DNA of 64,000 bases from Tidjanibacter sp. (GCA_017936605.1 JAGBFH010000022.1:916-64915), one strand, 5' to 3'; positions 6,675-62,160 are shown, counted from the stretch's first letter. A program made the numbers and translations. The notes: generated from the sequence alone by a model not told the origin.

Positions 6675-6790
6675 CAGGGGTTACAGGGGTTCCAGGGGTT
6701 CTCCCTAAATTCCTTAAGGTCCTTAAGGTCTTTAAGGTCCTTAAGGTCCTATAATCCTTTTGGCCCTTTTAGCCCTTTCGGCCCTTAAGG
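6675..6790. repeat. 9-bp-period intergenic mosaic repeat
   Basis: (CCAGGGGTT)n, (TAAGGTCCT)n, (GGCCCTTTT)n blocks. Confidence 0.85.
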
Positions 6791-6812
6791 AAATGCCCCT
6801 CGCGACACCCTA

Positions 6813-7499
6813 TCAACGAATGGAGTTCATACGGATACTCGCCTTCACAAAGGCCAGGGCCCTCACCTTCTCGATTTCGATATCCTTGTCGGCGTGGTGG
6901 GGATTCTGGCTCACGAGCTTTATGCACCCCGGGCGCTCGGACTTCTGGATGTACTTGACGGTCACATACTCCTCGCCCTCGAGGTCAATCGATAGGAGGT
7001 ACATATCGCCCCAGAAGATGTTGCTCCAGTCGTTCATCTGCTTGTAGAGCACAATATCGCCGCTCTTTAGGAGGGGGTACATACTGTCGCCCACAACATA
7101 AATCGCGCCATCGCACTTGGGCAGATTGGGGATGTGGATGTAGTCTATGGGCTGCACCTTCGTGGGGTCCATAAAGAGGGGCACAAGGCCCGCCGTACCC
7201 TCCATATTGTAGAGTGGAACGCTCTGCAAGGGCACAGTGTTGTCGGTGCGCTTGGTGAACTTCTGCCACTGCTCCTTGGGACAGTTGAACATCTCGCCCT
7301 TGCCGGTCTCGAGCCAGTCGGGATTGACATTCAAATCTTGAACAAGGATATTCTTGTTTCTCTCCGAGAGGGCAGCCTTGCCTGTCTCAATCATCGAGAG
7401 GGCACTCTTGCCCACTCCGAGCAGGGCAGCGAACTGCTCACCCGTCATTTCCAAATCTTTGCGAATTTTCTTTACGCGTACTCCCTTATTGTCAGCCAT
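6813..7499 (-). CDS. CI/LexA-like repressor: XRE HTH plus S24 autopeptidase
   Basis: HTH 'MTGEQFAALLGVGKSALSMIETG'; Ala-Gly site TAGL; GDSMYP catalytic Ser; VTVKY catalytic Lys. Confidence 0.9.
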   Translation of the reverse strand: MADNKGVRVKKIRKDLEMTGEQFAALLGVGKSALSMIETGKAALSERNKNILVQDLNVNPDWLETGKGEMFNCPKEQWQKFTKRTDNTVPLQSVPLYNMEGTAGLVPLFMDPTKVQPIDYIHIPNLPKCDGAIYVVGDSMYPLLKSGDIVLYKQMNDWSNIFWGDMYLLSIDLEGEEYVTVKYIQKSERPGCIKLVSQNPHHADKDIEIEKVRALAFVKASIRMNSIR

Positions 7500-7544
7500 A
7501 TACCTCGGGGTCTTAAAATTTTTATTCCGTTATGTGATACTAAA

Positions 7545-7559
7545 TTCAATTATTGAACA
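7545..7559. promoter_or_regulatory. Candidate repressor operator, copy 1
   Basis: Palindrome TTCAAT-T-ATTGAA(CA) abutting the + strand -7 element in the cI/terminase divergent region. Confidence 0.6.
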
Positions 7560-7604
7560 TATATTTGCACTGCAAAGTTAAGAAATTTATTTCTATTATA
7601 CAAA
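7560..7604. promoter_or_regulatory. Overlapping face-to-face promoters for the terminase unit (+) and cI (-)
   Basis: + strand TATATTTG at 7560-7567; - strand TAACTTTG at 7573-7580 with TTTG at 7601-7604 (20-nt spacing). Confidence 0.65.
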
Positions 7605-7623
7605 TATTTAATTAAATCCAACT

Positions 7624-8013
7624 ATGAAAAACACACCAGCAACCCCACAGCGACTGTTCGGTTTGGTGCCCAACGCCACCCATCCCGAGCAGGCAGAGAT
7701 TAGTTTCACCCCAACTCTCTACGCCGAGGTGCTCGAGTCGCTCTTGGAGCAGATTGCGGGCCTCAGCTACTTCAACGGCCGCATCTCAACCACCCACGAG
7801 GGCTTCAGTTCGGTGCTCACCGCCACACTCATCATCTACCACGACGACGAGGGGGACCTCCAAAGCCCCGTCAGGGACTTTGTGCCCATCTGGTGGGATA
7901 TGGAGAGTTTTCGTGACGATGAGTCGTCACCCCTTGCCCGCCCCGTCGGCAATGATTTCTCGCTCGCCCTGCTGCGCAAACTGCTCCGCGAGGGCGAACT
8001 ACCGCTGGATTAG
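7624..8013 (+). CDS. Hypothetical protein, first gene of the terminase transcription unit
   Basis: 129 aa, host-like codon usage, AACT-ATG start context; contains 'VPIWWD' and 'NDFS' segments. Confidence 0.7.
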   Translation: MKNTPATPQRLFGLVPNATHPEQAEISFTPTLYAEVLESLLEQIAGLSYFNGRISTTHEGFSSVLTATLIIYHDDEGDLQSPVRDFVPIWWDMESFRDDESSPLARPVGNDFSLALLRKLLREGELPLD

Positions 8014-8038
8014 TCGACCGACGACCGACTACCTACAA

Positions 8039-8146
8039 TAAGGTCCTTAGGGTCTTTAAGGTCCTTAAGGTCCTTAAAATCCTTTTTGCCCTTTTCGCCC
8101 TTTTCGCCCTTTTCGCCCTTTCTCAACTCTTAACCCTCAACCCTCA
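8039..8146. repeat. 9-bp and 7-bp period mosaic repeat between the orphan gene and terminase
   Basis: (TAAGGTCCT)n, (CGCCCTTTT)n, (AACCCTC)n. Confidence 0.85.
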
Positions 8147-8149
8147 ACT

Positions 8150-10207
8150 ATGACTTTTCTCGACTTTACCTCGCGGATGTTTCCTTCGTTCCGCACCACA
8201 CCATTCCACGCCCGCTACTATGCACTCCTTGAGGCCTTTGCCCAGGGGCGCATAAGGCGACTTATGATTACCATTCCGCCCCAGCACGGCAAATCGCTCG
8301 GCTCATCGGTGGCACTCCCCGCCTACCTCTTGGGCCTCAACCCCGACCTCCACATAGCCATTGCCTCCTATAGCGCCTCGCTGGCCCAGAAGTTCAACAA
8401 GCGTGTGCAGCGTCTTATAGACACTCCCGCCTATGCCGACATCTTCCCCGACACCACAATCAAGGCCGCAGGACGCTCGGGTGCCTACCAGCGCACAGCC
8501 GAGCTCACGGAGGTTGTGGGCCACACGGGCGACCTTGTGGCTGTGGGCAGAGAGGGCTCCCTGACTGGCAACCCTGTGGATGTGCTCATAATTGACGACC
8601 TCTACAAGGACGCAATGGAGGCCAACTCTCCCACCGTCAGGGAGAACTGCTGGGACTGGTACACCTCCGTTGTGCGCACCCGAGAGCACAACCTCTCGCG
8701 CGAACTTATTGTCTTCACCCGATGGCACAAGGAGGACCTGATTGGCCGCATCTACCAGAAAGAGAGGGTCGTGGAGCTCAAGAACTGGAGCGACATCGAC
8801 ACCCTCCCCGACGGCTGTTGGCTCCACCTGAACCTCGAGGCCCTCAAGACTACCCCCGCCACCGAGCTCGACCCTCGCGGGGTGGGCGAGCCACTCTGGG
8901 GCGAGCGCCACTCGGCCGAGCTGCTGAAGGAGAAACAGAGGCTCGACACGCTCCAATTCGAGGCTATGTATCAGGGGCGCCCGTCGGATGCTGCCGGCCT
9001 GCTCTATGGCGACAATTTTCAGACCTACTCGGCCCTGCCTGCTAAAAACGAAATCATCAGAAGGGCCAACTACACCGACACAGCCGATATGGGCGACGAC
9101 TACCTATGCTCGGTCTGCTACTCGGTGGGCACCGACGGCAACATCTACATCGAGGATGTGGTCTACTCGCGCGAGAAGATGGAGATAACCGAGCCTCTGG
9201 TGGCCGAGATGCTCACCCGCTGTGGCACTCCCGAGGCGACCATCGAGAGCAACAATGGCGGTCGCGGCTTTGCCCGCAACATCCAGCGCTTAGTACCCAA
9301 GTGCTCCATCGGGTGGTTCCACCAGAGCGCCAACAAGGAGTCGCGCATCCTTTCTAACGCCTCCACGGTGTTGCGTACGGTGCGTATGCCGGTGGACTGG
9401 AAGGAGCGGTGGGGCGATATGGCGGCCCACCTTATGGGATACAACCGCCGCTTCCGCACCAATCGCTGGCACGATGCAGCCGATGTGCTGACGGGCATCA
9501 TCGAGAGCGAGTGCAACCGCACCATTCGCAAACGCATCTACGGCACCTCCTTCTCCATACGCAACTATGTGCAGCCCAAGGAGCCCACCCCCACTCTCTC
9601 CTCGCGCCGCCTTACGGAGGCAGATTTTGAGGCTATGGCCGAGCGGTTGGGGGTGGAAAAGGCGGCCCTCAAGGCGGTTGTGGAGGTGGAGTGCTCCTCG
9701 CGTGGCGGCTTCCTCTTAGACGGCAGGCCACGCATACTCTTCGAGGGCCACATCTTCTGGCAACAGCTCCGCAAGAGGGGTTTCAGTCCCGAGAGTCTGC
9801 AAAAGGCCCACCCGTCAATCATCTATCCCAAGTGGGTGAGGACCCACTATCGTGGTGGTGCGGGCGAGTGGGAGCGCTTCTCGGAGGCGGCAGCCATCTC
9901 GCCCGAGGCGGCGGTGGAGTCGGCCAGCTGGGGTCTGTTCCAGATTATGGGCTTCCACTGGAGCACCTGCGGATGCGGCTCGGTGGAGGAGTTCAGAGAG
10001 CGTATGGAGAGGAGCGAGAGGGAGCAAATGGCCTTGGCAATGAATTTTCTTGAAAAAACGGGCATTGCAAAGTGGCTCAAAACAAAAGATTGGTGTAACT
10101 TTGCACTCAGATACAACGGCAGCGGCTACAAGGCCAATCGCTATGACCAGAAGCTCGCCGCCGCCTACAACAAGTTCAAACAACAAGAACAACACGCAAA
10201 GGAGTAG
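8150..10207 (+). CDS. Phage terminase large subunit fused to an N-acetylmuramidase (DUF3380-type endolysin)
   Basis: Walker A IPPQHGKS, Walker B LIIDD, TRWHKEDLIG, nuclease DTAD..GDDY, IESNNGG, HDAADV; from aa 488 LTEADF..LGVEKAALKAVVEVE..GGF...ILFEGHIF...SASWGLFQIMGFH...FALRYNGSGY. Confidence 0.9.
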   Translation: MTFLDFTSRMFPSFRTTPFHARYYALLEAFAQGRIRRLMITIPPQHGKSLGSSVALPAYLLGLNPDLHIAIASYSASLAQKFNKRVQRLIDTPAYADIFPDTTIKAAGRSGAYQRTAELTEVVGHTGDLVAVGREGSLTGNPVDVLIIDDLYKDAMEANSPTVRENCWDWYTSVVRTREHNLSRELIVFTRWHKEDLIGRIYQKERVVELKNWSDIDTLPDGCWLHLNLEALKTTPATELDPRGVGEPLWGERHSAELLKEKQRLDTLQFEAMYQGRPSDAAGLLYGDNFQTYSALPAKNEIIRRANYTDTADMGDDYLCSVCYSVGTDGNIYIEDVVYSREKMEITEPLVAEMLTRCGTPEATIESNNGGRGFARNIQRLVPKCSIGWFHQSANKESRILSNASTVLRTVRMPVDWKERWGDMAAHLMGYNRRFRTNRWHDAADVLTGIIESECNRTIRKRIYGTSFSIRNYVQPKEPTPTLSSRRLTEADFEAMAERLGVEKAALKAVVEVECSSRGGFLLDGRPRILFEGHIFWQQLRKRGFSPESLQKAHPSIIYPKWVRTHYRGGAGEWERFSEAAAISPEAAVESASWGLFQIMGFHWSTCGCGSVEEFRERMERSEREQMALAMNFLEKTGIAKWLKTKDWCNFALRYNGSGYKANRYDQKLAAAYNKFKQQEQHAKE

Positions 10208-10231
10208 CACCACTCTCCGACTCAAGTAGCA

Positions 10232-13001: not shown

Positions 13002-13630
13002 TGAGGCCGGAGATAGTCAGCTATATCGAGGAGTGCATCTTGCCTCGCTATGCGGAGTACGATGCGGCCCATCGTCGTGACCACATTGAGGGTGTCATTG
13101 AGCGCAGCCTCGCACTTGCCGAGCACTACCCCGAGCTACACAAAGAGATGGTCTATGTTGTGGCCGCCTACCACGACCTCGGACTTCCCGAGGGGCGTGA
13201 CACTCACCACATCTCCTCTGCACGACTTATGGCCGAGGATGAGAGGCTCAGGGAGTGGTTCTCCACCGAGCAGGTGCAGACTATGCGTGAGGCCATAGAG
13301 GACCACCGCGCCTCTGCCACACGCCCGCCCCGCTCGCTCTATGGGATGATTGTCGCCGAGGCCGACCGCCAGATAGTACCCGAGGTGGTTATGCGCCGCA
13401 CGGTGCAGTATGGCCTTGCCCACTACCCCCACCTCACTCGCGAGGAGCACTGGGAGCGCTTTGTGGGCCACCTCCACGAGAAGTATGACTACGGCGGCTA
13501 CCTCACGCTCTACATTCCCAACTCCGAGAACGCCCGCCAACTCGAGATTCTCCGCACCATCATAGCCGACAAAACAAGACTCCGCGATCTCTTTGAGGAG
13601 ATTTTTGAAGGGTTGAGAAGAGAGCATTGA
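13001..13630 (+). CDS. HD-domain phosphohydrolase
   Basis: True start at the ATG overlapping the upstream TAA; AAHRRDH, AAYHDLG, EDHRAS, IVAEADR. Confidence 0.85.
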   Translation: MRPEIVSYIEECILPRYAEYDAAHRRDHIEGVIERSLALAEHYPELHKEMVYVVAAYHDLGLPEGRDTHHISSARLMAEDERLREWFSTEQVQTMREAIEDHRASATRPPRSLYGMIVAEADRQIVPEVVMRRTVQYGLAHYPHLTREEHWERFVGHLHEKYDYGGYLTLYIPNSENARQLEILRTIIADKTRLRDLFEEIFEGLRREH

Positions 13631-13810
13631 AAGGGCCAAAAGGGCAAAAAGGGCAAAAAGGGCAAAAAGGATTTTAAGGTCATTAAGGACCTTAAAGACC
13701 TTAAGGACCTTATACTTCAAGTATCAATTCCCTTTTGGCCCTTTCGGCCCTTTCGGCCCTTCCCCTCCCCTAAGTTAGGGGAGGGTCCGCGAAGCGGGGG
13801 AGAGGTCTGT
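13629..13810. repeat. 9-mer mosaic plus REP-like palindrome
   Basis: (AAAAGGGCA)n, (TAAGGACCT)n, (GGCCCTTTC)n, then CCCTCCCCTAA-G-TTAGGGGAGGG at 13763-13785. Confidence 0.85.
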
Positions 13811-13842
13811 CGACGGTCGTCGGTTGTCGCCGAGTGCATATC

Positions 13843-17525: not shown

Positions 17526-17561
17526 AAAGCGACTGTCCGTATGGGCGGTCGCTTTTTTTGT
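17526..17561 (+). terminator. Intrinsic terminator after rpmA
   Basis: AAAAGCGACTGTCC-GTAT-GGGCGGTCGCTTTTTTT. Confidence 0.85.
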
Positions 17562-17574
17562 TGGTGGCTGGCTT

Positions 17575-17950
17575 GGCTGGGAAAGAGCAAAAAGGGCCAA
17601 AAGGGCGAAAAGGGCGGAAAGGCAGAAAAGAGAGATGGGAGAGATGGGAGAAATGGGAGAAATGGGAGAACTTGGCCTCTCGCTAATTTCCTGGAACTCC
17701 CTAATTTCCCTAAGGTCCTTAAAGTCATTAAAGTCCTATGGGGCCTATAAGACTTATAAGACCTATGGGACCTATAAGCCCCATAATCCCCTTTGGCCCT
17801 TTTGGCCCCTTTTGCCCTTTTGGCCCTTTTTAACTCCTCCCCTACGAAAGGGGAGGTTGGGAGGGGTGCTCGAAAATTGCGTGCGCGTCCTCGCGCACAG
17901 GGAGGGTGCCCGAAGGGCGGGAGAGGTCTGTTCTCTGTTCTCTGTTCTCG
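17575..17950. repeat. Large 9-mer mosaic with REP-like palindrome
   Basis: Blocks (AAAAGGGCC)n, (AAATGGGAG)n, (CCCTAATTT)n, (TAAGGTCCT)n, (CTTATAAGA)n, (GGCCCTTTT)n; CCTCCCCT-ACGAA-AGGGGAGG at 17836-17856. Confidence 0.9.
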
Positions 17951-17978
17951 GTAGACGACCAACAAAAAACCCCAGGAA

Positions 17979-18251
17979 TCAGTGATTCTTGGGGTTTTCT
18001 ACTGCGCCGCAGGCGCCACACTCGCCGTTGCAGTTGGGATTGGTGTCGCACGACTCCAAGCCCATAGCCTCCATCTGGGCCTCCCTCTCCTGCTGCATAG
18101 CACACTTAATGCCGAGCCTCTTCATATTGGGATTGGTCGATATTTCCGACTCTATGGGGTGGCCTTTGAACATCTGAGTGAGCGAGAGGGCCAGCACAAA
18201 GAATGCCAAGACCACAACACTTATGACGATTACGGTAAGAATTGACAACAT
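17979..18251 (-). CDS. Small membrane protein with C-terminal Cys cluster
   Basis: 90 aa from MLSILTVIV; TM helix, KRLGIKC, C-x5-C-x3-C-x2-C tail. Confidence 0.7.
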   Translation of the reverse strand: MLSILTVIVISVVVLAFFVLALSLTQMFKGHPIESEISTNPNMKRLGIKCAMQQEREAQMEAMGLESCDTNPNCNGECGACGAVENPKNH

Positions 18252-37432: not shown

Positions 37433-37477
37433 GATTCTCTAACTACTACTAAAATCACCACACATTTTTCATTTTTA

Positions 37478-37573
37478 GGCGGGGATTTCAAGGCTTGCGC
37501 AGTGTGAGAAACCGCAGTTTACTATAAGTAAATGAGGATTTCGAGCACAAGCATAACGCCGAAATCACCCCTA
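37478..37573 (+). repeat. Hairpin element A, copy 3
   Basis: GAAA-CCGCAG-TTTAC-TATAA-GTAAA-TGAGGA-TTTC; 14 nt from the tmk stop. Confidence 0.8.
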
Positions 37574-37586
37574 AAAATGGAAAATA

Positions 37587-38264
37587 CTACAAGAGGGGTT
37601 TCACATACTCTGCCACCCTCGCAAATATCTCCTCGGGCGAGGCCATAGCACCCTCCGAGGTGGAGCAATCCACCACCAGGAGCTCCTTATCCTCGCGTGC
37701 GGCCTCAAGGTAGACCTCCCTCACGCGGCGTTGCAGGTCGAGCGACTTCTCGTGGATATCCTGCCCGCCCGAGAGGTAACTCCTATCCTCGCCCTCGCGC
37801 TGCGCTGTAAGTTTGGCCTCCGTAAAGCCAAAGGGCACATCCAGGAAGAGCGACAGCGTGGGCTGGGGGATGGCAAACTTCTTATACTCCGTATCCAATA
37901 TCCACTCCCTCAGAGCCTTGCGCTCCTCGGCGGAGTCCACCTTGGCGCACTGGTAGCCTATGTTGGAGTAGACATACCTATCGACAATCACGCACTTGCC
38001 CTCGGCCAGCCACCCGCGAATCTGCGCGGCCGCGTCGGCCCTATCGCCCGCATACAGCAAGGCCACAAGGTAGGGGTTCACCTGCTCCACGGAGCCGAAC
38101 TCGCCCCTGAGGAAGCGGGCAATCATCTCGCCATAGACGGGCGCATCGAACCTCGGGAAGTGGAGATACTCACACTCGCGGCCCGTGGCCTCGACCATCT
38201 GGCGCAAAAGTTTAATCTGTGTGGATTTACCGGCTCCATCCAAGCCCTCAAGCACTATAAACAT
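37587..38264 (-). CDS. tmk: Thymidylate kinase
   Basis: FIVLEGLDGAGKSTQ, HFPR, LLYAGDR, VDRYVYSN. Confidence 0.95.
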   Translation of the reverse strand: MFIVLEGLDGAGKSTQIKLLRQMVEATGRECEYLHFPRFDAPVYGEMIARFLRGEFGSVEQVNPYLVALLYAGDRADAAAQIRGWLAEGKCVIVDRYVYSNIGYQCAKVDSAEERKALREWILDTEYKKFAIPQPTLSLFLDVPFGFTEAKLTAQREGEDRSYLSGGQDIHEKSLDLQRRVREVYLEAAREDKELLVVDCSTSEGAMASPEEIFARVAEYVKPLL

Positions 38265-38350
38265 ACCTTAAAATTTGACAATTGACAATTGACAATTGAA
38301 AGTTATTTCTTCCTCTTTTTTTATTTATTTTTCCTTTTTTCTTTTTCTTT

Positions 38351-38407
38351 CGCAGCTTTTTGTAAAAAGCTGCACCAAAAACTTTTAGGAGATACTCCGT
38401 ATCTCTC
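38351..38407 (+). repeat. Double-hairpin element B, copy 1
   Basis: GCAGCTTTTT-GT-AAAAAGCTGC, spacer, GAGATAC-TCC-GTATCTC. Confidence 0.85.
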
Positions 38408-38449
38408 TATTGGCACTACCCTACTTTAGAACCACCATCACTCGCTGTC

Positions 38450-38526
38450 GCCGTTGCGACCCGCAGTTTACTTTGGGGTAAATGAGGGACTCGCTATCGG
38501 GAATTTGGTGCGAAAAGCACCCACGA
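38450..38526 (+). repeat. Hairpin element A, copy 4 (partial)
   Basis: CCGCAGTTTAC-TTTGGG-GTAAATGAGG...GGTGCGAAAAGCACCCAC. Confidence 0.75.
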
Positions 38527-38538
38527 GATTGATTCAAT

Positions 38539-41352: not shown

Positions 41353-41418
41353 ACTCTATTCAAGTTGAAAGTTGAGAGTTCTTTCTTCCTCTCTCTTTAT
41401 TTATTTTTCCTTTTCTTT

Positions 41419-41780
41419 CGCGCCTTTTTATAAAAAGGCGCCCCAAAAATTTTTAGGAGATACTTCGTATCTCTGTATTTGCTCTACCCTATTTCGGAGC
41501 CACCCTCACTCGCAGCCGCCGTTGCGGCCGATACTGCGTATCGCTGCAACCTTAAGTCGTAGTTCTACCTACTGCCTTGCTTCGGAGCCACCCTAACAAA
41601 AGTGCCATTCTGGCACAAAAGGCGCCCCAAAAATTTTTAGGAGATACTATGTATCGCTATTAGCGTCTGCCAGGGCTCCTGGGGTTACTAAAGTCCTTAA
41701 AGTCCTTAAGGTCATTAAGGTCCTTAAGGTATTTTACCCTCCAAAAATTTTCAATTTTCAATTCTCAATTTTCAATTCCC
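41419..41780. repeat. Composite intergenic element: B copies 3 and 4 plus 9-mer and 7-mer arrays
   Basis: GCGCCTTTTT-AT-AAAAAGGCGC...GAGATACTTCGTATCTC at 41419-41474, partial copy at 41617-41660, (TAAGGTCCT)n at 41690-41730. Confidence 0.85.
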
Positions 41781-41794
41781 CAAGAGCGGGTTTT

Positions 41795-41895
41795 GTGGAG
41801 GGATTTTTGTGCCAAATTTCTGGAGTGACTCCGCAGTTTACTAAAGGTAAATGAGGAAGGCACTCTCGGGAATTTGGTGCAAAAAGCACCCACAA
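41795..41895 (+). repeat. Hairpin element A, copy 5
   Basis: GAGTGACT-CCGCAGTTTAC-TAAAG-GTAAATGAGGA-AGGCACTC. Confidence 0.85.
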
Positions 41896-41914
41896 GGCAC
41901 GCTCGCAACGCTCG

Positions 41915-43419: not shown

Positions 43420-43600
43420 GAAAATTGAAAATTGAAAATGGACAATTGAAAATTGACAATGGACAATTGACAATTGGGAGAAATGGGAGAAATGAGAGAA
43501 ATGAGAGGAATGGGAATTTTCCTTAAAAACATTAATGACATTAAAGACCTTAAGGTCCTTAAATTCCCTAATTTCCCTACCCCCCTAATAATTTTGAATT
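43420..43600. repeat. 7-mer and 9-mer mosaic
   Basis: (AATTGAA/C)n, (AAATGGGAG)n, (TAAGGTCCT)n, (TTTCCCTAA)n. Confidence 0.85.
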
Positions 43601-44120: not shown

Positions 44121-44456
44121 TGGGTTATAGAAATTAATAATGTGGTTTTTAATGTTTTTAGTCTAATTCGTCACGCGCCATCGGCCCGCTCTACTCTATT
44201 AGACACACGAAGATACGAATTTGTTGCACAAGTTGCAAATTTTTTGTGGTTTTTTGTAATAATTACAGAAGTGGGAGAAATGAGAGGAATGAGAGGAATG
44301 GGAGAGATGGGAGGTTAGGGGCCTTAAGGGTTTTAAGGACATTAAGGGCTTTAAGGACCTTAAGGACCCTAATTCGACAGACCGCTCTCGCCCTTCGGCC
44401 AAACAAAAAGCCCCTCCTTGGGTGGGAGGGGCCTATGGTGTTTGGGAATTGTGGCA

Positions 44457-45359: not shown

Positions 45360-45697
45360 AATAGAGTTACAACTTTATGGTTAGGGCGGCAAAGATACCT
45401 ATTAAAATTGAGAATTGAAAATGGACAATTGACAATTGGGAGAAATGGGAGAAATGGGAGAAATGAGAGAAATGAGAGGAATGGGAGAAATGAGAGGAAT
45501 GGGAATTTTCCTTAAAGACATTAAGGACATTAAAGACCTTAAGGTCCTTAAATTCCCTAATTTCCCTAATTTCCCTAATTTCCCTACCCCCTAATAATTT
45601 TGAATTTTGCACTTCTTTTTAGAGCAATGAATCTAACAGCACAACAAGGGCCGACCTGAAGCGGTCGGCCCTTGTTGTGGGTTTGTAGCACACTCTG

Positions 45698-46269: not shown

Positions 46270-46455
46270 TTACAGAAATGAGAGAAATGGGAGGAATGAG
46301 AGGAATGGGAGATTAGGGAGATTAGGGACTTTAAGGACTTTAAGGTCTTTAGGGTCCTTAAGGATTCTCCTCATTAACCTCACTAAATTCACTAAATTCC
46401 CTTTTTGCCCCTTTGGCCCTTTTAGCCCTTAAGGACCTTAGGGACCTTAAGGAGT
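46270..46455. repeat. 9-mer mosaic
   Basis: (AATGAGAGG)n, (TTAGGGAGA)n, (TTTAAGGAC)n, (GCCCTTTTA)n. Confidence 0.85.
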
Positions 46456-46492
46456 TTAGGTCGGATAGACCGTAGACAAAAAAATCAAAATA

Positions 46493-46593
46493 ACGGAGGG
46501 AATTTTTTGCCAAACAAAGTAGCGGACTCCGGAGTTTGCTTGACGCAAATGAGGAAGTCCGCTATCTGAAGTTTGGTGAAAAATTCACCCGCT
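46493..46593 (+). repeat. Hairpin element A, copy 6
   Basis: TAGCGGACT-CCGGAG-TTTGC-TTGAC-GCAAA-TGAGGA-AGTCCGCTA; abuts the infB stop. Confidence 0.85.
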
Positions 46594-49390
46594 ATTTTGT
46601 TTTTTTCACTTCGACCTGGTCGTAGGACTCAATTATATCACCAATCTTAATATCGTTGTAGGACTCGATGTTAAGACCGCACTCCATATTGGTCAGCACC
46701 TCCTTGGCGTCGTCCTTGAAGCGTTTGAGCGAGCCGAGGCGGCCGGTGTAGATAACGATACCGTCGCGGATGACGCGGATGGGCGAGGTGCGGGTAATCT
46801 TACCCTCACGCACAATACCGCCGGCGATAGTACCCACCTTGCTAATCTTGAAGGTCTCGAGCACCTCGACGGTACCCATAATCTCCTCCTTCATCTCGGG
46901 CTCCAACATACCCTCGATTGCATCCTTGATGTCGTTGATGGCGTCGTAGATGATGGAGTACATACGAATCTCGATGGCCTCATTCTCGGCGAGCTTGCGG
47001 GCACCCGCGCTGGGACGCACCTGGAAGCCCACGATGACGGCATTGGAGGCGGCAGCCAAGAGCACATCGCCCTCGGTAATCTGGCCCACAGCCTTGTGGA
47101 TGACATTCACCTGTACGGTCTCGGTGGAGAGCTTCAGGAGCGAGTCGGTCATAGCCTCAATCGAGCCGTCAACATCACCCTTCACGATGATATTCAGCTC
47201 CTTGAAGTTACCGATGGCGATACGGCGACCAATCTCATCGAGGGTCACATGCTTCTGGGTCTTGATGCCCTGGATGCGCTGCAACTGCTCGCGCTTGGTG
47301 GCAATCTCGCGTGCACTCCTATCGTCGTCCATAACATTGAACTTGTCGCCTGCCTGGGGTGCGCCATTAAGACCGAGCACCAGCACAGGTGTTGCGGGGC
47401 CTGCCGAGGCCACCTTCTTGCCGTGCTCGTTGAACATAGCCTTCACGCGGCCTGTGTGGGTACCCGAGAGGATGACATCACCGGTGCGGAGGGTGCCGCT
47501 CTCAACCAGCACGGTGGCCACATAGCCACGGCCCTTGTCGAGCGACGACTCGATGACCGTACCCACAGCCTTCTTGTTGGGGTTGGCCTTCAGGTCCAAA
47601 AGCTCGGCCTCGAGGAGTACCTTCTCCAAGAGTTTGTCGAGGTTGATACCCTGCTTTGCGGAGATCTCCTGCGACTGGTACTTACCGCCCCAGTCCTCCA
47701 CAAGGTAGTTCATATTTGCCAACTGCTCCTTGATAGCGTCGGGGTTGGCCGAGGGTTTATCAATCTTGTTGATGGCGAAGACCATAGGCACGCCCGCAGC
47801 CACAGCGTGGTTGATAGCCTCCACAGTCTGGGGCATAACCTTATCGTCGGCTGCCACGATGATGATGGCCACATCGGTAACCTGGGCACCACGCGCACGC
47901 ATCGCCGTGAAGGCCTCGTGACCGGGGGTGTCGAGGAAGGTGATGGTCTTGCCGTCGAGCTGCACACTGTAGGCACCGATGTGCTGGGTGATACCACCCG
48001 CCTCACCGGCAGTCACATTGGTCTTGCGGATGTTGTCCAGCAGCGAGGTCTTACCGTGGTCCACGTGGCCCATAACGGTAACAATGGGGGGACGGGGCAG
48101 CATATCCTCTTCGCTGTCGGCCGACTCCTCGATGGCCTCCTGAATGTCGACGCTCACGAACTCCACCTTGAAGCCATACTCCTCGGCGACAATCACGAGT
48201 GCCTCGGCATCCAGACGCTGGTTGATGGACACCATCAGACCCAAGTTCATACAGGTCATAATAACCTCCGTAACGGCCACATTCATCATTGTTGCCAGGT
48301 CGCTAACGGTCACGAACTCGGTCAGCTTGAGAGTCTTGCTCTCATTCATCGACTGCTCAAACTCGGCCTCCATACGCTCGGCCACAGCCTGGCGTTTCTC
48401 CTTGCGGTGAACCGAGCCCTTGCTCTTGGCACCCTTGGCGGTGAGCCTTGCGAGGGTGTCCTTAATCTGCTTCTGCACCTCCTCGTCGCTCACCTCGGGG
48501 CGAACTACGGGCTTGGGTGCAGGCTTGTTGTGTTTGTTCTTCTTGTCCTTCTTGGAGGAGGGCTGCTGGCCGTTCTGGCCACCACCCTGACCGCCCTGCT
48601 GGGGCTTGCCGCCACCCTGCTGGGGCTTGGTCACATCGACCTTATCTTTGATGCGTTTGCGCTTCTCGCGGTGCGAAGGCTCCGAGCTCTTGCGCAGGCT
48701 GTCCACATCAATCTTGCCGAGCACCTTGGGACCCGAGAGGCTGTTGTTCTCCAGACGGAACACCTCGCTGCTCTCGGCCAGACGCTCGTCGTAGGTCTTG
48801 TGCTGAGCCTCGCTGTCGGCCACGGGCACCTCCTGCTTCTTGGGCTCCACGGGTTTGGGTGCGGGAGCGGGCGCAGGCTTAGGCTCGGGCTTGGGAGCGA
48901 CCTTCGCGGGCTCCTCCTTGGCCTTCTTGGGCTCGGGTTTCACTTCGGGTTCAGGTTTGGTTTCAGGCTGAGGCTTGGGTGCGGGTTGCTCGCTCCTAAC
49001 CTCCTCCTTGGGGGCTGCCTTGGGCTCCTCGGCCTTGGGGGCTGTGGCAGGCTCGAGGTCTATCTTGCCGACCACCTTGGGGGTGGGCACCTCGGTACGA
49101 ATGAAGCTACTATTCTTGATAATAACCTCCTTCTCCTCCGCGCCGCTCTCCTTGCGGTCACCAAGCGACACACTCTCCTGCTTGAGGTTCATACGCTCAC
49201 GCACATTGGCCCTCTCGCCGCCAAGATGATTGCCACCAAACTCCTTCTCCAGAAGAGCATAGACATCGCTCTCAACAAGCGTGTTGGGTGCTACATCCTT
49301 GATTCCTTTCTTCTCGAGAAATTCGGTAATGGTGCCCAGACCAACCTTGAACTCTCTTGCAACCTGTACGAGTCTCAGTTTCTTCTCCAT
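46592..49390 (-). CDS. infB: Translation initiation factor IF-2
   Basis: [55 protein letters not shown]. Confidence 0.98.
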
Positions 49391-49457: not shown

Positions 49458-49730
49458 CGCAGCTTTTTGTAAAAAGCTGCACCAAAAACTTTTAGGAGAT
49501 ACTTTGTATCTCTGTATTTGCTCTACCAGGGATTCCAAGGGTCTTGTTCCTTAATCTCCTTAAGGTCATTAAGGTCCTTAAGGTCTTTAAGGTCTTTCTC
49601 TCTGCCTTACGACCCCAATTTGCTGTAGATTGCGGAGGGATTTTTGTGCCGCGCAAGGTAGCAAGTCCGCAGTTTACTGGGGTAAATGAGGAACTTGCTA
49701 TCCGCAGGGCGGTGCAAAAATCACCCGCAA
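49458..49730. repeat. Composite element between nusA and infB: B copy 5 (49458-49513), 9-mers, A copy 7 (49631-49730)
   Basis: Same motifs as the other A and B copies. Confidence 0.85.
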
Positions 49731-51012: not shown

Positions 51013-51410
51013 CGCAGCTTTTTATAAAAAGCGAAACTTCTTAGTCGCTTTTTTATAAAAAAGCTCCGCAAAAAATTTTTAGGAGATACTTCGTATCTCT
51101 GTATCCCAATGCAATAATTCTACCTTCGGCCTTGCTTCGGAATCCCAGTACTCGCTGGCACCGTTGTGCCCGATACTGCGTATCGCTGTGTTTACCAGGG
51201 GCTCTATGCTCCTTAATCTCCTTAAGGTCATTAAGGTCTTTAGGGTCTTTAAGGTCCTTAGGGTATTTTCTACCATCCCCAAAAAATCAACTGCCCCTGA
51301 AAATTCGTATTGCGAGGGGATTTCAAGGCTTGGTTTTGATTTTGCTCCGCAGTTTACTGGGGTAAATGAGGAAGCAAAATCGAAAGCGTAACGAAGAAAT
51401 CACCCGCAAG
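51013..51410. repeat. Composite element between rimP and nusA: B copy 6 (51013-51100), 9-mers, A copy 8 (51311-51410)
   Basis: Same motifs as the other A and B copies. Confidence 0.85.
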
Positions 51411-52105: not shown

Positions 52106-52522
52106 CTACTCCGCCCTTCCAAAAAGGTTCTTTAGGCGACGGCCGAAGAGGAGCATAACATCCACAAAACGCCTTTCGCCCGTAACCACCGAGGCGTTCT
52201 CGAGATAGCTCCAGAACTCCACACCACAGACAAAGCCTGTGAAGAGGTTGGCAAGTCGCAGTTCGACAAAGGGTGAGGCGATGCCGTCGAGCAGCCAGGC
52301 CAGAACGATGCCCGCCATCACGAACGACAGTTTGCGGATAGTTTTCCAAGCCTTGCGGCTCTCGAAGCGCCAAGTGCGCCCCTCGGTGCGGGCCCTGCGA
52401 CGGTCTGCCAGAACTCCCGTGAGGAAGTCCACCGCCACGAACGCCATCGCACACACAAGCAAAGGCTCTACGGGTGCAAAGAGTGAGAGCACCCCCGTAA
52501 CGATTCCAGTCAAATACTTCAT
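52106..52522 (-). CDS. Phage holin (family 4-like)
   Basis: TM helices; VDFLTGV and EFWSYLEN motifs. Confidence 0.8.
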   Translation of the reverse strand: MKYLTGIVTGVLSLFAPVEPLLVCAMAFVAVDFLTGVLADRRRARTEGRTWRFESRKAWKTIRKLSFVMAGIVLAWLLDGIASPFVELRLANLFTGFVCGVEFWSYLENASVVTGERRFVDVMLLFGRRLKNLFGRAE

Positions 52523-52569
52523 TTTTTAGTTTTTAGTTTTCAGTTTTAAGTTCGTCAGTTTTCAGTTTG

Positions 52570-53049
52570 TCAGAGGACAATGCCGCCCGAGAGTGAGGTG
52601 CGGGAGCGCACATTCTCCTCGGGGGAGTAGAGGGGGCCGAGGGTGGGCAGCAGGGCGAGTTGCTCGGTGGCGGCATCGATGAGTGCCTCGGCGTCGTGGC
52701 GCAGTCGTCGTAGGGCCGCACGCATCGCCGCACTATCGGCCACCTCGAAGCTCTCGCCCGAGAGCCTCACGACACCCGCCGTGCCTACCTGTACGGCCAG
52801 CGAGGGCAAAACTACCGAGGCTACATAGAGTGCCAAGGGTACTTTAAGAAACTCCTCGGTAAACTTTGTGCACTCCTCCGAGGGGTTTTCGGCAACAAGC
52901 AGGTCGAAGAGCTCTCGGCCCACCACAGGGCGCAGAAAGCGTCGTTGGGCGGCAAGGATGGTGTGGGCGGGCACCGCCTCCTCGCGGAGGGTGTTGGTTG
53001 TGCCGAAGGCAATGGAGATGACCTCGGCAGAGGTGATGAGTTGTTTCAT
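52570..53049 (-). CDS. Putative head-tail adaptor/connector protein
   Basis: 159 aa, helical; directly downstream of the portal; AQRRFLRPVVGRELFD and KVPLALYV resemble Bacteroidetes phage adaptors. Confidence 0.55.
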   Translation of the reverse strand: MKQLITSAEVISIAFGTTNTLREEAVPAHTILAAQRRFLRPVVGRELFDLLVAENPSEECTKFTEEFLKVPLALYVASVVLPSLAVQVGTAGVVRLSGESFEVADSAAMRAALRRLRHDAEALIDAATEQLALLPTLGPLYSPEENVRSRTSLSGGIVL

Positions 53050-56124: not shown

Positions 56125-56400
56125 GTTTTTGGGGGATTGCAAGGGGGGTAAGGGGTTGCAAAGGGTTGTAGGGGAATTTAGGGAGTTTAGGGAGTTTAGG
56201 GAGTTTAAGGTCCTTAAGGTCTTTAAGGTCTTTAAGGTCCTTAAGGTCCTTAGGGTCCTTAAGGAAAACTCCCATTTCTCTCATTTCTCTCATTTCTCCC
56301 ATCTCTCCCATCTCTCCCATTTCTCCCATTTCTCCCATTTCTCCCATTTCTCCCATTTTCTGCCGAGGCAAAACCCTCTACAATCAACCCTCAACTCCTC
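56125..56400. repeat. Host 9-mer mosaic inside the phage-like operon
   Basis: (TTAGGGAGT)n, (TAAGGTCCT)n, (TTCTCCCAT)n between the protease and capsid genes. Confidence 0.9.
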
Positions 56401-60221: not shown

Positions 60222-60250
60222 AGCGATTTCTTATCAGTTATTGTTGGGTT

Positions 60251-61243
60251 CTACCATAGTTGACTCTTTCTCGAGGGGCGCAGGGTCACATCTATCGACA
60301 TAGCCCCCTCGCCACTACATCTACACACCGACTCCTCAATGGTGCAGGGCCTCCACTCATCGCCCTCGAGCCTCCAGAGGCGGGGTGCCGAAGTAAGCCC
60401 CCTCACAAAGTCCATCTCGCCACGCGAGAGCAGACCGCTACGGAGCCTCAGGCGACTCCAACTCTCCACCGCGAGTGTGTGGGTGCCACTCAGGGTGTCG
60501 CTCTCGCGCCTCTCCACCTGCTGGTGCTCCTCGGGCTGCGAGCGGAAGGTGTAGTGGCGCACAGCACCATAGGCATCGAGCCACGCCACACGACAATCCC
60601 CCTTTGCCGACGGCACCACAAGGTAGTCAATGACACCCTTGAGCAGGCCGCCAATCCACACCCTCAGATCCAACTCCACACTCTCCTCCTGCTGGTCGAG
60701 TGCCGAGCGCAAATCCTCAAACGAGTAGGTCAGCGTATAGAGGCCCGAGGAGGGGCACACATAGCGCAGCAGACGCTCGGAGGTGTCGCTCTGGGGGGTT
60801 GTAACATCCACAATGACACCATCATCCTCCTTCAGATAGAGCGACAATTCGTCAAACTCGTCGGGAGAAATGACCCTTCGCTGTCGGGCAGGACCCACCA
60901 TTGCCGAGGGCTCCAAGGCCACCACATTGGCCCCAAACCTCGCCAGAGCACTTCGCTCTCCATCCTCACCCACGGCAACACTCAGTGCCACCTGGCGACC
61001 CGCGGGCTGCTCCAACCTCAGAGAGCCTCGCACCACTGGCTGGGGGTCCAACATACGACGAATGATTGCTCGGGGCGAGGAGTCAATCACCGAACGCCCC
61101 GCATAGCGACGAGCACCCAACCTCTGGCCCTCGCTGTCGAAGAAGTATATCTCGGTACTCTCCGCAGGGTCCACCTCCTCGAAATGGAAATAGTTGTCGG
61201 CCAAAATGGGGCTAAAGTCGGCCGGAATAGATATCAATTTCAT
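60251..61243 (-). CDS. Phage tail protein (distal-tail-like)
   Basis: C-terminal VAWLDAYGAVRHYTF...LRSGLLSRGEMDFVRGLTSAPRLW pattern. Confidence 0.6.
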   Translation of the reverse strand: MKLISIPADFSPILADNYFHFEEVDPAESTEIYFFDSEGQRLGARRYAGRSVIDSSPRAIIRRMLDPQPVVRGSLRLEQPAGRQVALSVAVGEDGERSALARFGANVVALEPSAMVGPARQRRVISPDEFDELSLYLKEDDGVIVDVTTPQSDTSERLLRYVCPSSGLYTLTYSFEDLRSALDQQEESVELDLRVWIGGLLKGVIDYLVVPSAKGDCRVAWLDAYGAVRHYTFRSQPEEHQQVERRESDTLSGTHTLAVESWSRLRLRSGLLSRGEMDFVRGLTSAPRLWRLEGDEWRPCTIEESVCRCSGEGAMSIDVTLRPSRKSQLW

Positions 61244-61261
61244 AAGTTCAGTATTTTAACT

Positions 61262-61672
61262 TTAGTTCATACACTCCACACACTCCATCCTCAAACTGAG
61301 GCTCACGGCACACTCGCCCGCAATGGTGAGCATACGCTCCTCGGGCTTGAGCTCCAGAAGCTCCACCGCGGCCACAGATGAGGCCTCACCCAAGAGCGCC
61401 ACAAAACTCCCTGCCGAGTCCATCAGCGAGGCCATAGCCTCACGCCTCGACTTAGCACCTATTACATTGTCGCTCATTAGTTTAATTGTGACATCATACT
61501 GCACCCTGCGCTCCTTTTCGCCCTCCATAGAGCCGGCTTCCGCCCAGGCAAAAGAGGCCATCGGAAAGCCTTTGGATAGTAGCGTTTGATGAAGGTCCGA
61601 CTCGAGGGTCGGATTGTACCCGAGGCTCTCGGCAATGGACCATAGGGCCGTAAATAAGGATTTGTAACTCAT
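61262..61672 (-). CDS. Putative tail completion/terminator protein
   Basis: 136 aa, first gene of the operon; size and alpha/beta pattern fit, no firm motif. Confidence 0.45.
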   Translation of the reverse strand: MSYKSLFTALWSIAESLGYNPTLESDLHQTLLSKGFPMASFAWAEAGSMEGEKERRVQYDVTIKLMSDNVIGAKSRREAMASLMDSAGSFVALLGEASSVAAVELLELKPEERMLTIAGECAVSLSLRMECVECMN

Positions 61673-61702
61673 AGTTCAGAAACTTGTTTTCGTTGTTTAT
61701 TA

Positions 61703-61718
61703 GTTCAATTTCTGAACA
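61703..61718. promoter_or_regulatory. Candidate repressor operator, copy 2
   Basis: GTTCA-ATTTC-TGAAC(A); 13/15 identical to 7545-7559; overlaps the predicted transcription start. Confidence 0.6.
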
Positions 61719-61747
61719 AAGGTAGTGCAAGCAGCGCCGCTTGTCAA
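61717..61747 (-). promoter_or_regulatory. Promoter of the phage-like structural operon
   Basis: - strand TTGA (61744-61747), 19 nt, TACCTTTG (61717-61724). Confidence 0.7.
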
Positions 61748-61879
61748 GCACTATTTTCCCTACGGATGACACATTTTTCCTCTTTTCTTGAATACAAACG
61801 AGCACAATAGACAGTGCACCAACAAGATAAGAATAGTGCAATTTTTCAACTTTTATTGAACTTTTTGCCGAAAGCAGAA

Positions 61880-62160
61880 AGTTGAAAGTTGACAATTGAA
61901 AATGGAAAATTGAAAATTAAGGTCCTTAAGGTCCTTAAAGTCCCTAAGGACTTATAGGGCTTATAGGACATATAGGGCATATAGGCCCTTTTGGCCCTTT
62001 TAGCCCTTTGGGCCCTTTGGGCCCTTTATTCCCTCCCCTAAGTTAGGGGAGGGTGAGCGAAGCTCGGGAGAGGTCTGTTGGCGGGCAGAGAGTTGAAAGT
62101 GAGTATAGGGCTTATGGGGCTTATAGGTCTTATAGGTCTTATAGGTCCCATTGTCGGTCG
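61880..62160. repeat. 7-mer and 9-mer mosaic plus REP-like palindrome
   Basis: (AATTGAA)n, (TAAGGTCCT)n, (CTTATAGGG)n, (GGCCCTTTT)n; CCCTCCCCTAA-G-TTAGGGGAGGG at 62031-62053. Confidence 0.9.

Follow-up and report, generated by a model that had tools for sequence, protein, structure and literature searches.

The DNA between the genes of a 64,000-bp stretch from a Tidjanibacter-like bacterium contains tandem arrays of 9-bp and 7-bp units, which are joined into ordered mosaics. This stretch, here called the window, is C11:916-64915 of a 1.88-Mb metagenome-assembled genome (MAG; 25 contigs, 99.6% complete). Its IF-2 protein was 95-83% identical to those of MAGs from yak, goat and other guts labelled Tidjanibacter sp., and 60-70% identical to those of Alistipes and other Rikenellaceae. 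Within a single sub-clade of a Rikenellaceae genus, the arrays occupy DNA without other signals, namely what lies between terminator-type hairpins, promoters and start codons. We give a probability of about one half to the reading that the mosaics are hypermutable, period-inheriting slippage arrays that fill unconstrained spacer DNA and are pruned by selection. The odds are likewise even that they are for the most part non-specific spacer DNA that renews itself; the cell may at most make use of them as insulating, unstructured spacers. We take them not to be hairpins, restriction-modification (R-M) decoys, transposon scars or products of a reverse transcriptase (RT).

Arrays in the window and the genome

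Arrays were detected with Tandem Repeats Finder (TRF), and overlapping rows were merged for the window list; the stretches 6600-6860, 7980-8200, 13580-13820 and 17540-17980 were also read by eye. Genes were mapped with a crude caller based on open reading frames and codon usage, by which starts near arrays may be misplaced by a few codons. TRF returned 98 rows in the window, among them 52 of period 9 and 13 of period 7. When the window was shuffled ten times in 500-bp blocks with dinucleotides preserved, only 0-3 period-9 and 0-2 period-7 rows were obtained, which excludes chance. An earlier reading of this DNA by a model from the sequence alone (the sequence-only reading) had listed 13 regions built from a small set of words. 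All 13 were found to be period-9 or period-7 arrays, with TRF rows at every coordinate, and the words had been read correctly (TAAGGTCCT, AAATGGGAG, TTTCCCTAA-type, CTTATAAGA-type, GGCCCTTTT and AATTGAC). As shown in Table 1, seven further arrays were present, six of them of 7-mers and one, at 62104, of 9-mers. Period-9 hits within coding sequences of the window had 2-3 copies and units outside this vocabulary.

The same arrays were found throughout the genome, in 791 clusters. TRF gave 883 period-9 and 440 period-7 rows genome-wide, compared with 78, 88 and 59 rows for periods 8, 10 and 11, so that 9-mer arrays were twice as frequent as 7-mer arrays. Arrays covered 13.5% of non-coding and 0.6% of coding base pairs; for period-7 arrays, including 14- and 21-bp multiples, the values were 4.6% and 0.17%. 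Their share of spacer DNA was 19% between convergent genes, 10.6% between tandem genes and 7.5% between divergent genes. An array was present in 90 convergent spacers (127 convergent spacers measured at least 100 bp), and arrays were enriched on the 3' side of genes. The vocabulary was limited, with AAAAGGGCC, AAGGACCTT, AAGACCTAT and AAATGGGAG as the leading 9-mers and AAAATTG, AAAATTC and AATTGAC, followed by AAAGTTG and AAAGTCT, as the leading 7-mers.

Unit length, register and polarity

Unit length was examined by counting perfect tandem duplications in non-coding DNA. Units of 9 bp were duplicated at 479 sites (359, 73, 26 and 21 with two, three, four, and five or more copies; 0.3 two-copy sites expected from shuffles), and units of 7 bp at 382 sites (307, 58, 15 and 2, respectively; 17 expected). 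The corresponding numbers were 27 for 8 bp (22 with two, 4 with three and 1 with four copies; 3 expected), 8 for 10 bp (0.7 expected) and 4 for 11 bp (0.0 expected). The duplication process, or its survivors, is sharply confined to 7 and 9 bp.

Differing 9-mer blocks that lie next to each other were found to share a register. Among 188 such junctions, the best match between the two units was in phase at 91 and shifted by one base at 58, and the mean Hamming distance was 4.8 in phase compared with about 7.5 out of phase. Because adjacent blocks keep phase, a mosaic is one continuous period-9 array whose unit morphs block by block, as in the series CCTATAAGA, CCCATAGGC, CCTATATGC, CCTTTTGGC. Most words follow one template, in which four A/T positions precede a 5-nt G/C block (GGNCC or GGGAG). 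The earlier view that this is not one slipping microsatellite is therefore borne out, in that many words are combined under a common period and a grammar.

The order of the words is also regular. On the + strand, the left side is taken by purine-rich words and their 7-mers and the right side by the corresponding reverse complements: AAAAGGGCC was placed left 49 times and right 4 times, and GGCCCTTTT left 2 times and right 49 times. The near-palindromic words AAGGNCCTT, AAGACCTAT and ATGGGGCCT lie centrally without strand preference, and 7-mers are outermost. This polarity was measured in 135 mosaics as the purine fraction of each third on the + strand, with word classes ignored. The fraction was 0.64 in the left third and fell through a central value of 0.50 to 0.36 in the right third, and it was higher on the left than on the right in 126 of the 135 mosaics (Wilcoxon p ~1e-20). 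In the right third, C made up 0.283 and G 0.147 of the bases, the left third being the mirror image. The rule held in convergent (50/54 mosaics), divergent (12/12), tandem - strand (34/34) and tandem + strand (25/30) contexts; the purine-to-pyrimidine polarity is independent of the orientation of the flanking genes. An array orientation set by transcription was likewise rejected, as arrays in tandem spacers were sense in 157 cases and antisense in 145. These data confirm, and put into numbers, the "similar order" of words that had been noticed from the sequence alone.

Table 1. Arrays (TRF; unit and copy number) and other repeats of the window, with positions counted from its first base; "added" marks the seven arrays beyond the regions of the sequence-only reading
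Feature	Position	Setting and remarks
3.4 copies of a 60-bp unit	1258-1462	between tRNA-Thr and umuD; TRF score 255; unrelated to the 7/9-bp arrays
Mosaic (TTCCAGGGG)x3.3 - (TCCTTAAGG)x4.4 - (CCTTTTGGC)x3.4	6672-6786	PAP2 gene start to XRE/S24 repressor gene end; weak fold, z -2.2
(CGACCGA)x2.7, (TAAGGTCCT)x4.3, (TCCTTAAAA)x2.6, (CCTTTTCGC)x4.6, (CTCAACC)x3.9	8015-8148	spacer wholly arrays, from stop codon 8013 to terminase ATG 8150
Mosaic (AAAGGGCAA)x4.6 - (TTAAGGACC)x4.3 - (CCCTTTCGG)x3.6	13630-13761	convergent genes on either side; among the few with complementary arms
Element A	13761-13800	
Double mosaic (AAAGGGCGA)x5.4, (GAGAAATGG)x4.6, (TAAAGTCAT)x2.8, (CCTATAAGA)x4.8, (CCCTTTTGG)x4.8	17582-17830	followed by an Element A variant
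Element A (variant)	~17836-17926	
Private 7-mer array (TCTGTTC)x3.3	17927-17949	added; duplicates the GGTCTGT tail of the adjoining Element A
(AATTGAC)x4.4	37402-37432	added; just 5' of a suf-cluster gene start; orthologous spacers of relatives also have 7-mer arrays
CCTCATTTRCS element	37440-37580	
(TTGACAA)x3.6	38275-38299	added; directly upstream of the start of gene 37587-38264(-)
CCTCATTTRCS element	38400-38530	
(AAGTTGA)x2.7	41362-41380	added; upstream of the sufC start
(TAAGGTCCT)x4.7 + (AATTTTC)x4.6	41689-41777	sufB-sufC spacer; 41746-41777 added
CCTCATTTRCS element	41780-41900	
Mosaic (GAAAATT)x8.1 - (TGGGAGAAA)x4.6 - (TTAAAGACA)x3.4 - (TCCCTAAAT)x2.7	43420-43579	
Mosaic (AGAAATGGG)x5.2 - (TTAAGGGCT)x5.7 - (CCTTAAGGA)x5.7	44267-44372	
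Mosaic (AATTGAC)x4.7 - (TGGGAGAAA)x7.6 - (CCTTAAAGA)x4.8 - (TCCCTAATT)x4.7	45406-45586	model order: 7-mer, purine word, near-palindrome, pyrimidine word
Six-word mosaic incl. (GGGAGATTA)/(TCCCTAATC) block	46274-46453	3' of infB, after a terminator-like hairpin and T-run
CCTCATTTRCS element	46466-46600	
(TCCTTAAGG)x5.2	49548-49594	nusA-infB spacer
(TTAAGGTCT)x5.2	51219-51268	
Heptamer array (TTCAGTT)x7.7	52518-52573	added; unit one base off TAACTGA read on the opposite strand
Mosaic (GGGAGTTTA)x4.0 - (TTAAGGTCC)x6.7 - (CTCCCATTT)x10.0	56172-56358	within a phage-like structural operon
Mosaic (GAAAATT)x6.0 - (TTAAGGTCC)x3.7 - (AGGACATAT)x4.3 - (GGCCCTTTG)x4.9	61877-62027	abuts an Element A copy
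Element A	62028-62075	
(TATAGGTCT)x4.9	62104-62147	added

Some 7-mer arrays also resemble promoters. The (AATTGAC)n and (AAAATTG)n arrays at 43420-43476, 45406-45438 and 37402-37432 present a TTGACA or TTGAAA hexamer every 7 bp. With GACAAT or GAAAAT 17 bp downstream of the hexamer, they were scored as serial sigma-70-type promoters, by a consensus that may not be that of the host. The primary sigma factor of Bacteroidota is not known to use the sigma-70-type TTGACA consensus.

Turnover between strains and species

Independent assemblies of near-identical strains were retrieved via exact protein matches. Over about 40 kb, the window and ERZ28654132 differed by 2 substitutions and by two indels, both in arrays, of +27 bp (3 units) at ~46329 and +9 bp at ~43508. 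Over 6.6 kb, ERZ28018701 showed 3 substitutions, all clustered at a rearrangement joint near 41520, and otherwise only +9 bp in each of the same two arrays. The 9 bp added to the TGGGAGAAA block at ~43508 read CTCTCATTT in loci L113 and L114, and the (GGGAGATTA)/(TCCCTAATC) block at ~46329 had gained 27 bp in L113 and L115 and 9 bp in L114. A further assembly, ERZ28654387 (20.9 kb), and three short Logan contigs were identical to the window. The arrays change unit number far faster than bases substitute. Moreover, since three independent assemblies reproduce the arrays while differing in unit number, the arrays are not assembly artefacts. The comparison of strains for copy-number variation that the sequence-only reading had proposed thus yielded differences of whole units. 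Its statement that this is "not ordinary slippage" holds insofar as the mosaics contain many words and are not a single microsatellite; it does not hold for turnover, which in near-identical strains proceeds by whole units in a slippage-like manner.

The rearrangement seen in ERZ28018701 (L114) lies in array-rich DNA. This contig matches the window for 6.6 kb and then continues with other gene content (fumarase instead of sufC onward), and its joint at ~41520 falls in the repeat-rich sufB-sufC spacer beside GATACGCAGTATC-type hairpins. Judging from such positions, array-rich spacers may be recombination break-points.

Between species the arrays are the fastest-evolving sequence class. When the relatives G017 and G014 were aligned, identity was 94.2% in coding DNA, 86.5% in other intergenic DNA and 70.8% in array columns, and the arrays contained 12 gap events, with lengths of 7, 14, 21 and 27 bp among others. 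Of 7 Tidjanibacter MAGs, 6 have arrays in the spacer 3' of infB, with differing words; in several of the 6, a terminator-like hairpin and T-run is immediately followed by GTCTAxx-type 7-mers, with which the arrays start. Many stop-to-start spacers of the suf cluster are occupied by 7-mer arrays in G017, G014, G013 and G003. At 351 bp, the nusA-infB spacer is longer than that of the array-free relative L048 (about 110 bp), which indicates that the arrays are extra DNA. New arrays can arise from local sequence: TTCAAAA, which G000 and G013 lack, is present in 5 copies in G017 and in 3 in G014, and (TCTGTTC)x3 at 17927 repeats the tail of the adjoining dispersed element (Element A, described below), which is a local duplication in 7-bp steps. 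Similarly, G017 and G014 read TAG(AATTGAG)x4ATG where G003 and G013 read TAG-AG-ATG.

Folding of the mosaics

Some regions had been noted to carry complementary blocks at their two ends that could fold back. To serve as a control, the right half of each mosaic was reverse-complemented (arm-flipped). Mean minimum free energy (MFE) was -45.9 kcal/mol for native and -45.0 kcal/mol for arm-flipped mosaics, the native form being better in 67 of 135, and no spacer class folded better than this control. A whole-mosaic hairpin or cruciform was rejected on these grounds. Among mosaics with both polar arms, the same word family occupied both arms only 4 times, compared with 13.4 +- 2.9 expected. Complementary arms are thus rarer than expected, and fold-back is the exception. 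Individual regions differed: 13625-13765 folds into a long hairpin (dG -39.1, z -6.95), no structure was predicted for the spacer 8014-8149 (z -0.1), and pairing in 56190-56330 is local only. The complementary end blocks are therefore real at 13629-13760, where the long hairpin forms, and the complementary words AAAAGGGC and GGCCCTTTT are visible at 17585-17830; as a general property, fold-back was not supported by the arm-flipped controls, by the scarcity of same-word arms or by the flanks of Element A, which are less complementary than permuted ones.

Only a minority of the mosaics fold at all, and the G+C-rich hairpin plus U-run of an intrinsic terminator was not found in them; terminator-like hairpins adjoin the arrays and do not lie within them. 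Nor do the mosaics show the palindromic or terminal-inverted-repeat folding typical of REP/REPIN elements or MITEs (miniature inverted-repeat transposable elements).

Dispersed elements beside the arrays

Three dispersed elements were noted, two of them associated with arrays. Element A, with about 147 copies genome-wide, is made up of CCTCCCCTAAGTTAGGGGAGG, a further small hairpin and a GGGAGAGGTCTG tail. Of its tails, 130/150 (87%) lie within 60 bp of an array, compared with 7.4% of the genome. The side of its first hairpin (HP1) usually adjoins (GGCCCTTTT)n, and its tail side faces 7-mers or purine-rich 9-mers (TTGTGCTTCGGTAG plus (AAATGGGAG)n or (AAAGGGCC)n). Stems between the two arrays that flank an Element A were rejected, as the same-locus duplex energy was -23.5 kcal/mol and that of permuted pairs -27.2 kcal/mol. 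Element M (GCAAATGCGAGTAAGCGAG...CATTTTAGACAAAACTTCAGTTTTGTC, ~80-100 bp) has 14 copies, none of them in the window and all flanked by 7-mer-type repeats (sites include C3:60661, C4:89629, C4:94287, C14:59469 and C19:88748); in G003 and G014 it is likewise found in 7-mer arrays of suf spacers. The 7 bp on its two sides look alike, and this may be a target duplication or simply the array itself.

The third element, of ~100-130 bp, has the core ..CCTCATTTRCS..AAACTGCGG.. followed by a T-run and stands just after stop codons (Table 1). Dozens of BLAST matches to it were obtained in at least 12 species of the genus, and it looks like a terminator-hairpin family.

Distribution among relatives

The trait is essentially confined to part of the genus. 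Searched with at most 2 mismatches, (AAAATTG)x3 was present in 32 of 47 species of the genus, mostly with tens to several hundred matches (maximum 344), and absent from the other 15. In 27 other genera of the family there were 0-5 matches, with 18 in one genome; a reversed-pattern control gave about 0. Three copies of AAGGNCCTT were limited to 5 species, namely G000 (171), G164 (106), G146, G013 and G152. TRF on 20-kb samples showed that the 9-mer vocabulary is species-specific, while 7-mers such as AAAATTG are shared.

Among IMG/VR contigs, (AAAATTG)x4 was found in nine, three of them rich in 7-mer arrays. The IMG/VR contigs L129, L130 and L135 (52-59% GC) carry many AAAATTG/AATTTTC-type arrays, with 14 in 14 kb in L129. 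These contigs may be phages or prophages of this clade; if they are, the process that forms the repeats, or the signal they carry, also acts on mobile DNA. Three copies of AAGGTCCTT were not found in IMG/VR. Three copies of AAATGGGAG were found in 27 metagenome contigs, as isolated single arrays in unrelated DNA of 24-59% GC. In our judgement, AAATGGGAG matches no more contigs than any 9-mer class would in such a collection, and an identity of words across phyla was rejected.

Repair genes, mobile-element genes and restriction sites

Loss of mismatch repair or of a single-stranded DNA exonuclease was rejected as a cause of the arrays by the presence of MutS and RecJ. Of the 13 genus members searched for MutS, 12 had a hit above the family cut-off and one, G008, matched a paralogue only; RecJ was present in 46 of 47 genomes, array-bearing and array-free alike. 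A single RT gene was identified (RVT_1, 444 aa, C10:16866-18200), on a contig of low GC (50.6%) and with a generic "RT" model as its best PADLOC match; this locus is probably part of a mobile or defence island. RT was undetected in several array-rich relatives, including G009 and G011, and no link between RT and arrays was found. RAYT/Y1 transposases (PF01797) were present in 0 of 32 array-bearing species and in one array-free species of the genus. The IS4/IS5 DDE transposase (PF01609) was absent from the source genome and from array-rich species and was found in the array-poor G010 only, although MAGs can miss insertion sequences. Rfam gave no family in the window apart from tRNA.

The palindromes within the words had also been suggested to be decoy sites for a restriction or methylation system. 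GGWCC/GGSCC occurred 4-6 times per kb and CTTAAG 5.3 times per kb in arrays, compared with 0.6-1.3 and 0.05 per kb in coding DNA. The ratio of observed to expected sites in coding DNA was 0.83-0.89 for GGWCC, 0.69-0.71 for GGSCC and 0.64 for CTTAAG. The sites that are truly avoided in coding DNA were GATC (0.11), CTAG (0.01; 38 sites in 1.58 Mb) and GAATTC (0.24), and these were also missing from the arrays, with 3 GATC and 1 CTAG in 36.5 kb. Their avoidance suggests restriction systems or repair biases that act at those sites.

Discussion

We favour the reading that the mosaics are slippage arrays which inherit their period, fill unconstrained spacers and are held in check by selection. The engine would be replication slippage or unequal sister-strand exchange. 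Slippage at the edge of an array would duplicate flanking bases in register, and it is by this copying that period and phase are proposed to be inherited. The vocabulary could be spread by ectopic exchange between arrays or by co-dispersal with Element A. Selection would only prune: it would clear arrays from coding DNA, keep divergent promoter spacers sparse, and remove long complementary arms together with GATC and CTAG. The expected outcome would be purine-rich words on the strand that runs 5' to 3' into the spacer and near-palindromes in the middle of the mosaic. The sequence-only reading had proposed a mosaic made by templated addition or spread by recombination. Some spread, or a shared descent, of the vocabulary is indeed needed, because the same words stand at hundreds of loci, and the TAG(AATTGAG)x4ATG spacer of G017 and G014 points the same way; templated addition by RT was not upheld, given that the sole RT is generic, lies on a low-GC contig and is undetected in array-rich relatives.

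Several observations weigh against this slippage model. The step size is unnaturally sharp for generic slippage (k=7 382 and k=9 479, compared with k=8 27 and k=10 8), and no repair defect was found, MutS and RecJ occurring in array-rich and array-free species alike. A purely neutral model accounts neither for the polarity, which was seen in 126 of 135 mosaics independently of gene orientation, nor for the fixed order of 7-mer, polar 9-mer and near-palindromic 9-mer. Arrays recur at the same orthologous spacers, both across the suf cluster and, in 6 of 7 species, 3' of infB. Some arrays are conserved better than their neighbouring genes: in G003 and G013, which are 83% identical overall, the leader array CAATTTTGAATTTTGAATTTTGCATTTTGAATT-ATG and a GTTAGAC array next to a terminator show no difference; at least some arrays are therefore constrained. 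Finally, a 1.9-Mb genome is expected to delete useless DNA.

In another model, which we consider possible but doubtful, the mosaics would be bidirectional, structure-free transcription insulators. A transcript would run through purine words first and then through a periodic, unstructured tract, rich in C and poor in G, onto which Rho or another RNA-binding terminator or insulator loads before the next gene, and the dyad polarity would let it work from both sides. Polarity was the same in convergent, divergent and both tandem contexts, the right third is rich in C and poor in G with its mirror image on the left, and arm complementarity is avoided, as an unstructured, rut-like Rho-loading tract would need. 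Arrays are also densest between convergent genes (19% of bp; 90 spacers with an array, 127 of at least 100 bp), mosaics are placed after a terminator-like hairpin and ahead of the next promoter, and Rho is encoded, as a 599-aa open frame. The attraction of the model is that it covers polarity, orientation independence, convergent enrichment and avoidance of complementarity together. It is opposed by the C-containing 7-mer arrays (AATTCTC) between suf cistrons of relatives, where Rho loading would be polar, by the G retained in several pyrimidine-side words (GGCCCTTTT, GAATTTT), and by the faster evolution of arrays than of other intergenic DNA. The C residues of rut sites are described as recurring about every 11-13 nt, a spacing other than the 7 or 9 seen here. 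In a wider form, which has a small but real chance of being right, the mosaics would be functional, orientation-free boundary elements of transcription units, made of interchangeable 7- and 9-nt words, with complementarity of the arms actively avoided, so that every transcript crossing from either side would present a candidate landing pad, unstructured, periodic and C-rich, to Rho or another multimeric RNA or DNA binder; the 7/9 step would then reflect the site size of the binder or a dedicated duplication mechanism. A related proposal, which we regard as unlikely, is that the mosaics would be bound in series by some abundant protein that recognises 7-9 nt of DNA or RNA (HU-like, or of the OB-fold, S1 or Csp type), for which words would be interchangeable and only the WWWW+GGNCC-type pattern and the period would matter. 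This would suit the template that differing words share in phase, the sharply fixed period and the conservation of some leader arrays beyond the coding level, and for heptamer arrays known elsewhere just upstream of starts, a role as sites for S1, Csp or CsrA has been put forward (PMC4679880). Yet the analysis identified no candidate protein restricted to the array-bearing clade, two periods need two binders or a flexible one, words and copy numbers turn over rapidly, and 7 and 9 bp mismatch the DNA helical repeat.

It is rather doubtful that the arrays are modules of a dispersed, non-autonomous, BOX- or MITE-like composite element, in which Element A and its flanking arrays spread together, vocabulary, order and polarity came from a master copy, and the arrays later expanded or contracted. 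The stereotyped array neighbourhood of 87% of the ~147 Element A copies fits such a history, as do the recurrence of words and order over hundreds of loci, a vocabulary array at a site where sister species have a spacer of only 2-4 bp, and viral contigs from IMG/VR (origin unchecked) with the same 7-mer arrays. With 791 clusters and ~147 copies, however, most arrays have no adjoining element. On the mosaics inspected by eye, neither terminal inverted repeats nor target duplications were visible, a systematic test not having been made; array-bearing species lack a RAYT/IS200-type transposase, the IS4/IS5 DDE type occurring only in array-poor G010; and orthologous sites of close species differ in words, as turnover in situ predicts. 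Scars of an enzyme with a fixed stagger, left by insertion and excision with 7- or 9-bp target duplications or by RT-templated 3'-end addition at breaks (head-to-head and telomere-like), are very improbable. Discrete steps of 7 and 9, the symmetric 9-bp form of the central word AAGGNCCTT, which is typical of staggered-cut targets, the 7-bp flank identity of Element M within 7-mer arrays, and a purine- and G-rich strand that runs 5' to 3' toward the centre as in fused telomeres would all accord with them. But neither an IS4/IS5 DDE nor a Y1 transposase was found in array-rich species, the generic RT on its low-GC contig has no detected counterpart in array-rich G009 and G011, flank identity is expected for Element M inside any array, and strain differences of +1 and +3 units fit slippage better than a single insertion-excision. 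Least credible of all are decoy or sink sites for an R-M or methylation system that recognises the word palindromes (GGNCC, CTTAAG, CCTTAAGG). Although GGWCC/GGSCC and CTTAAG are denser in arrays than in coding DNA, they are barely avoided in genes (observed/expected 0.64-0.89), unlike GATC, CTAG and GAATTC, which the arrays lack; polar words and 7-mers are devoid of such palindromes, and words differ between sister species. The decoy claim was accordingly abandoned.

Arrays of this kind have partial counterparts among known repeats. Prokaryotic long simple sequence repeats (LSSR) have 5-11-nt units (Mrazek, Guo & Shah 2007, as summarised in PMC4679880). In that summary they are short tandem units beyond chance, sporadic in phylogeny and with prominent heptamers, mostly non-coding where the unit is not a multiple of 3, and variable in copy number, for which slippage was proposed. 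The arrays described here are likewise longer than chance would give and differ in copy number between strains (+9, +27 bp); unlike LSSR as portrayed there, they combine 7 and 9 in phase-locked, polar, ordered mosaics that make up 13.5% of non-coding DNA. Heptamer direct repeats with the unit TAACTGA, known from Beggiatoaceae, Cyanobacteria and a few Bacteroidetes (MacGregor 2015, PMC4679880), are similar in being intergenic, often just 5' of starts, often filling the spacer, and strain-specific in copy number. One such repeat was found in the sister species G003, where (CAGTTAT)x4.7 at L127 9147-9179 is TAACTGA on the opposite strand, and some 7-mer arrays here fill stop-to-ATG spacers. In that system, heptamers akin to TAACTGA seldom form repeats; TAACTGA itself is not among the 40 commonest 7-mer units here, and many related and unrelated heptamers are repeated. 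Moreover, that system is essentially one word in one orientation to the gene, whereas here dozens of words occur in two periods, with dyad polarity, mostly 3' of genes and in an orientation that follows spacer geometry, not the gene.

Heptamer repeats called STRR were reportedly described from heterocystous cyanobacteria by Mazel and co-workers in 1990. They are dispersed intergenic tandem heptamers in many copies and lineage-specific, and the 440 period-7 rows dispersed in non-coding DNA here are of the same form. No STRR unit is known to be among the 40 commonest 7-mers, the host belongs to Rikenellaceae and not to the cyanobacteria, 9-mers dominate here, and mosaic order and polarity are not known from STRR. 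BOX and REP/REPIN-RAYT elements are similarly dispersed in spacers, modular with variable copy number, and associated with hairpins (Element A in this genome). The modules here differ in being arrays of 7-/9-bp units and not 40-60-bp boxes, no conserved termini were seen, most mosaics are unfolded, and RAYT is lacking. CRISPR arrays, with 23-55-bp repeats, unique spacers and cas genes, differ in that the 7/9-bp units here abut directly without spacers. A full-text search of the literature returned no description of such arrays for Alistipes, Tidjanibacter or Rikenellaceae, and no such 7/9 grammar. The mosaics are apparently an undescribed, unusually ordered form within a poorly understood class of bacterial short repeats.

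The arrays have practical consequences for genomics. They break short-read assemblies, 14 of the 50 contig ends of this genome stopping inside an array, and they mislead gene callers because period-9 arrays keep reading frames open. They could also serve as very high-resolution strain markers in gut metagenomics. STRR, LSSR and TAACTGA repeats have been known for decades in scattered bacteria without an accepted function or mechanism, and this gut commensal lineage offers an unusually clean case, whose rules (7/9 steps, inheritance of phase, and orientation-independent polarity with avoidance of arm complementarity) constrain the models. With about 30 sister species that have the trait and about 15 congeners that do not, the genus lends itself naturally to comparisons aimed at the gene or selective pressure responsible. 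If the mosaics were boundary elements and the polarity rule proved general, they would represent a widespread, undescribed class of intergenic element, and the decades-old puzzle of STRR and other heptamers would gain a testable function.

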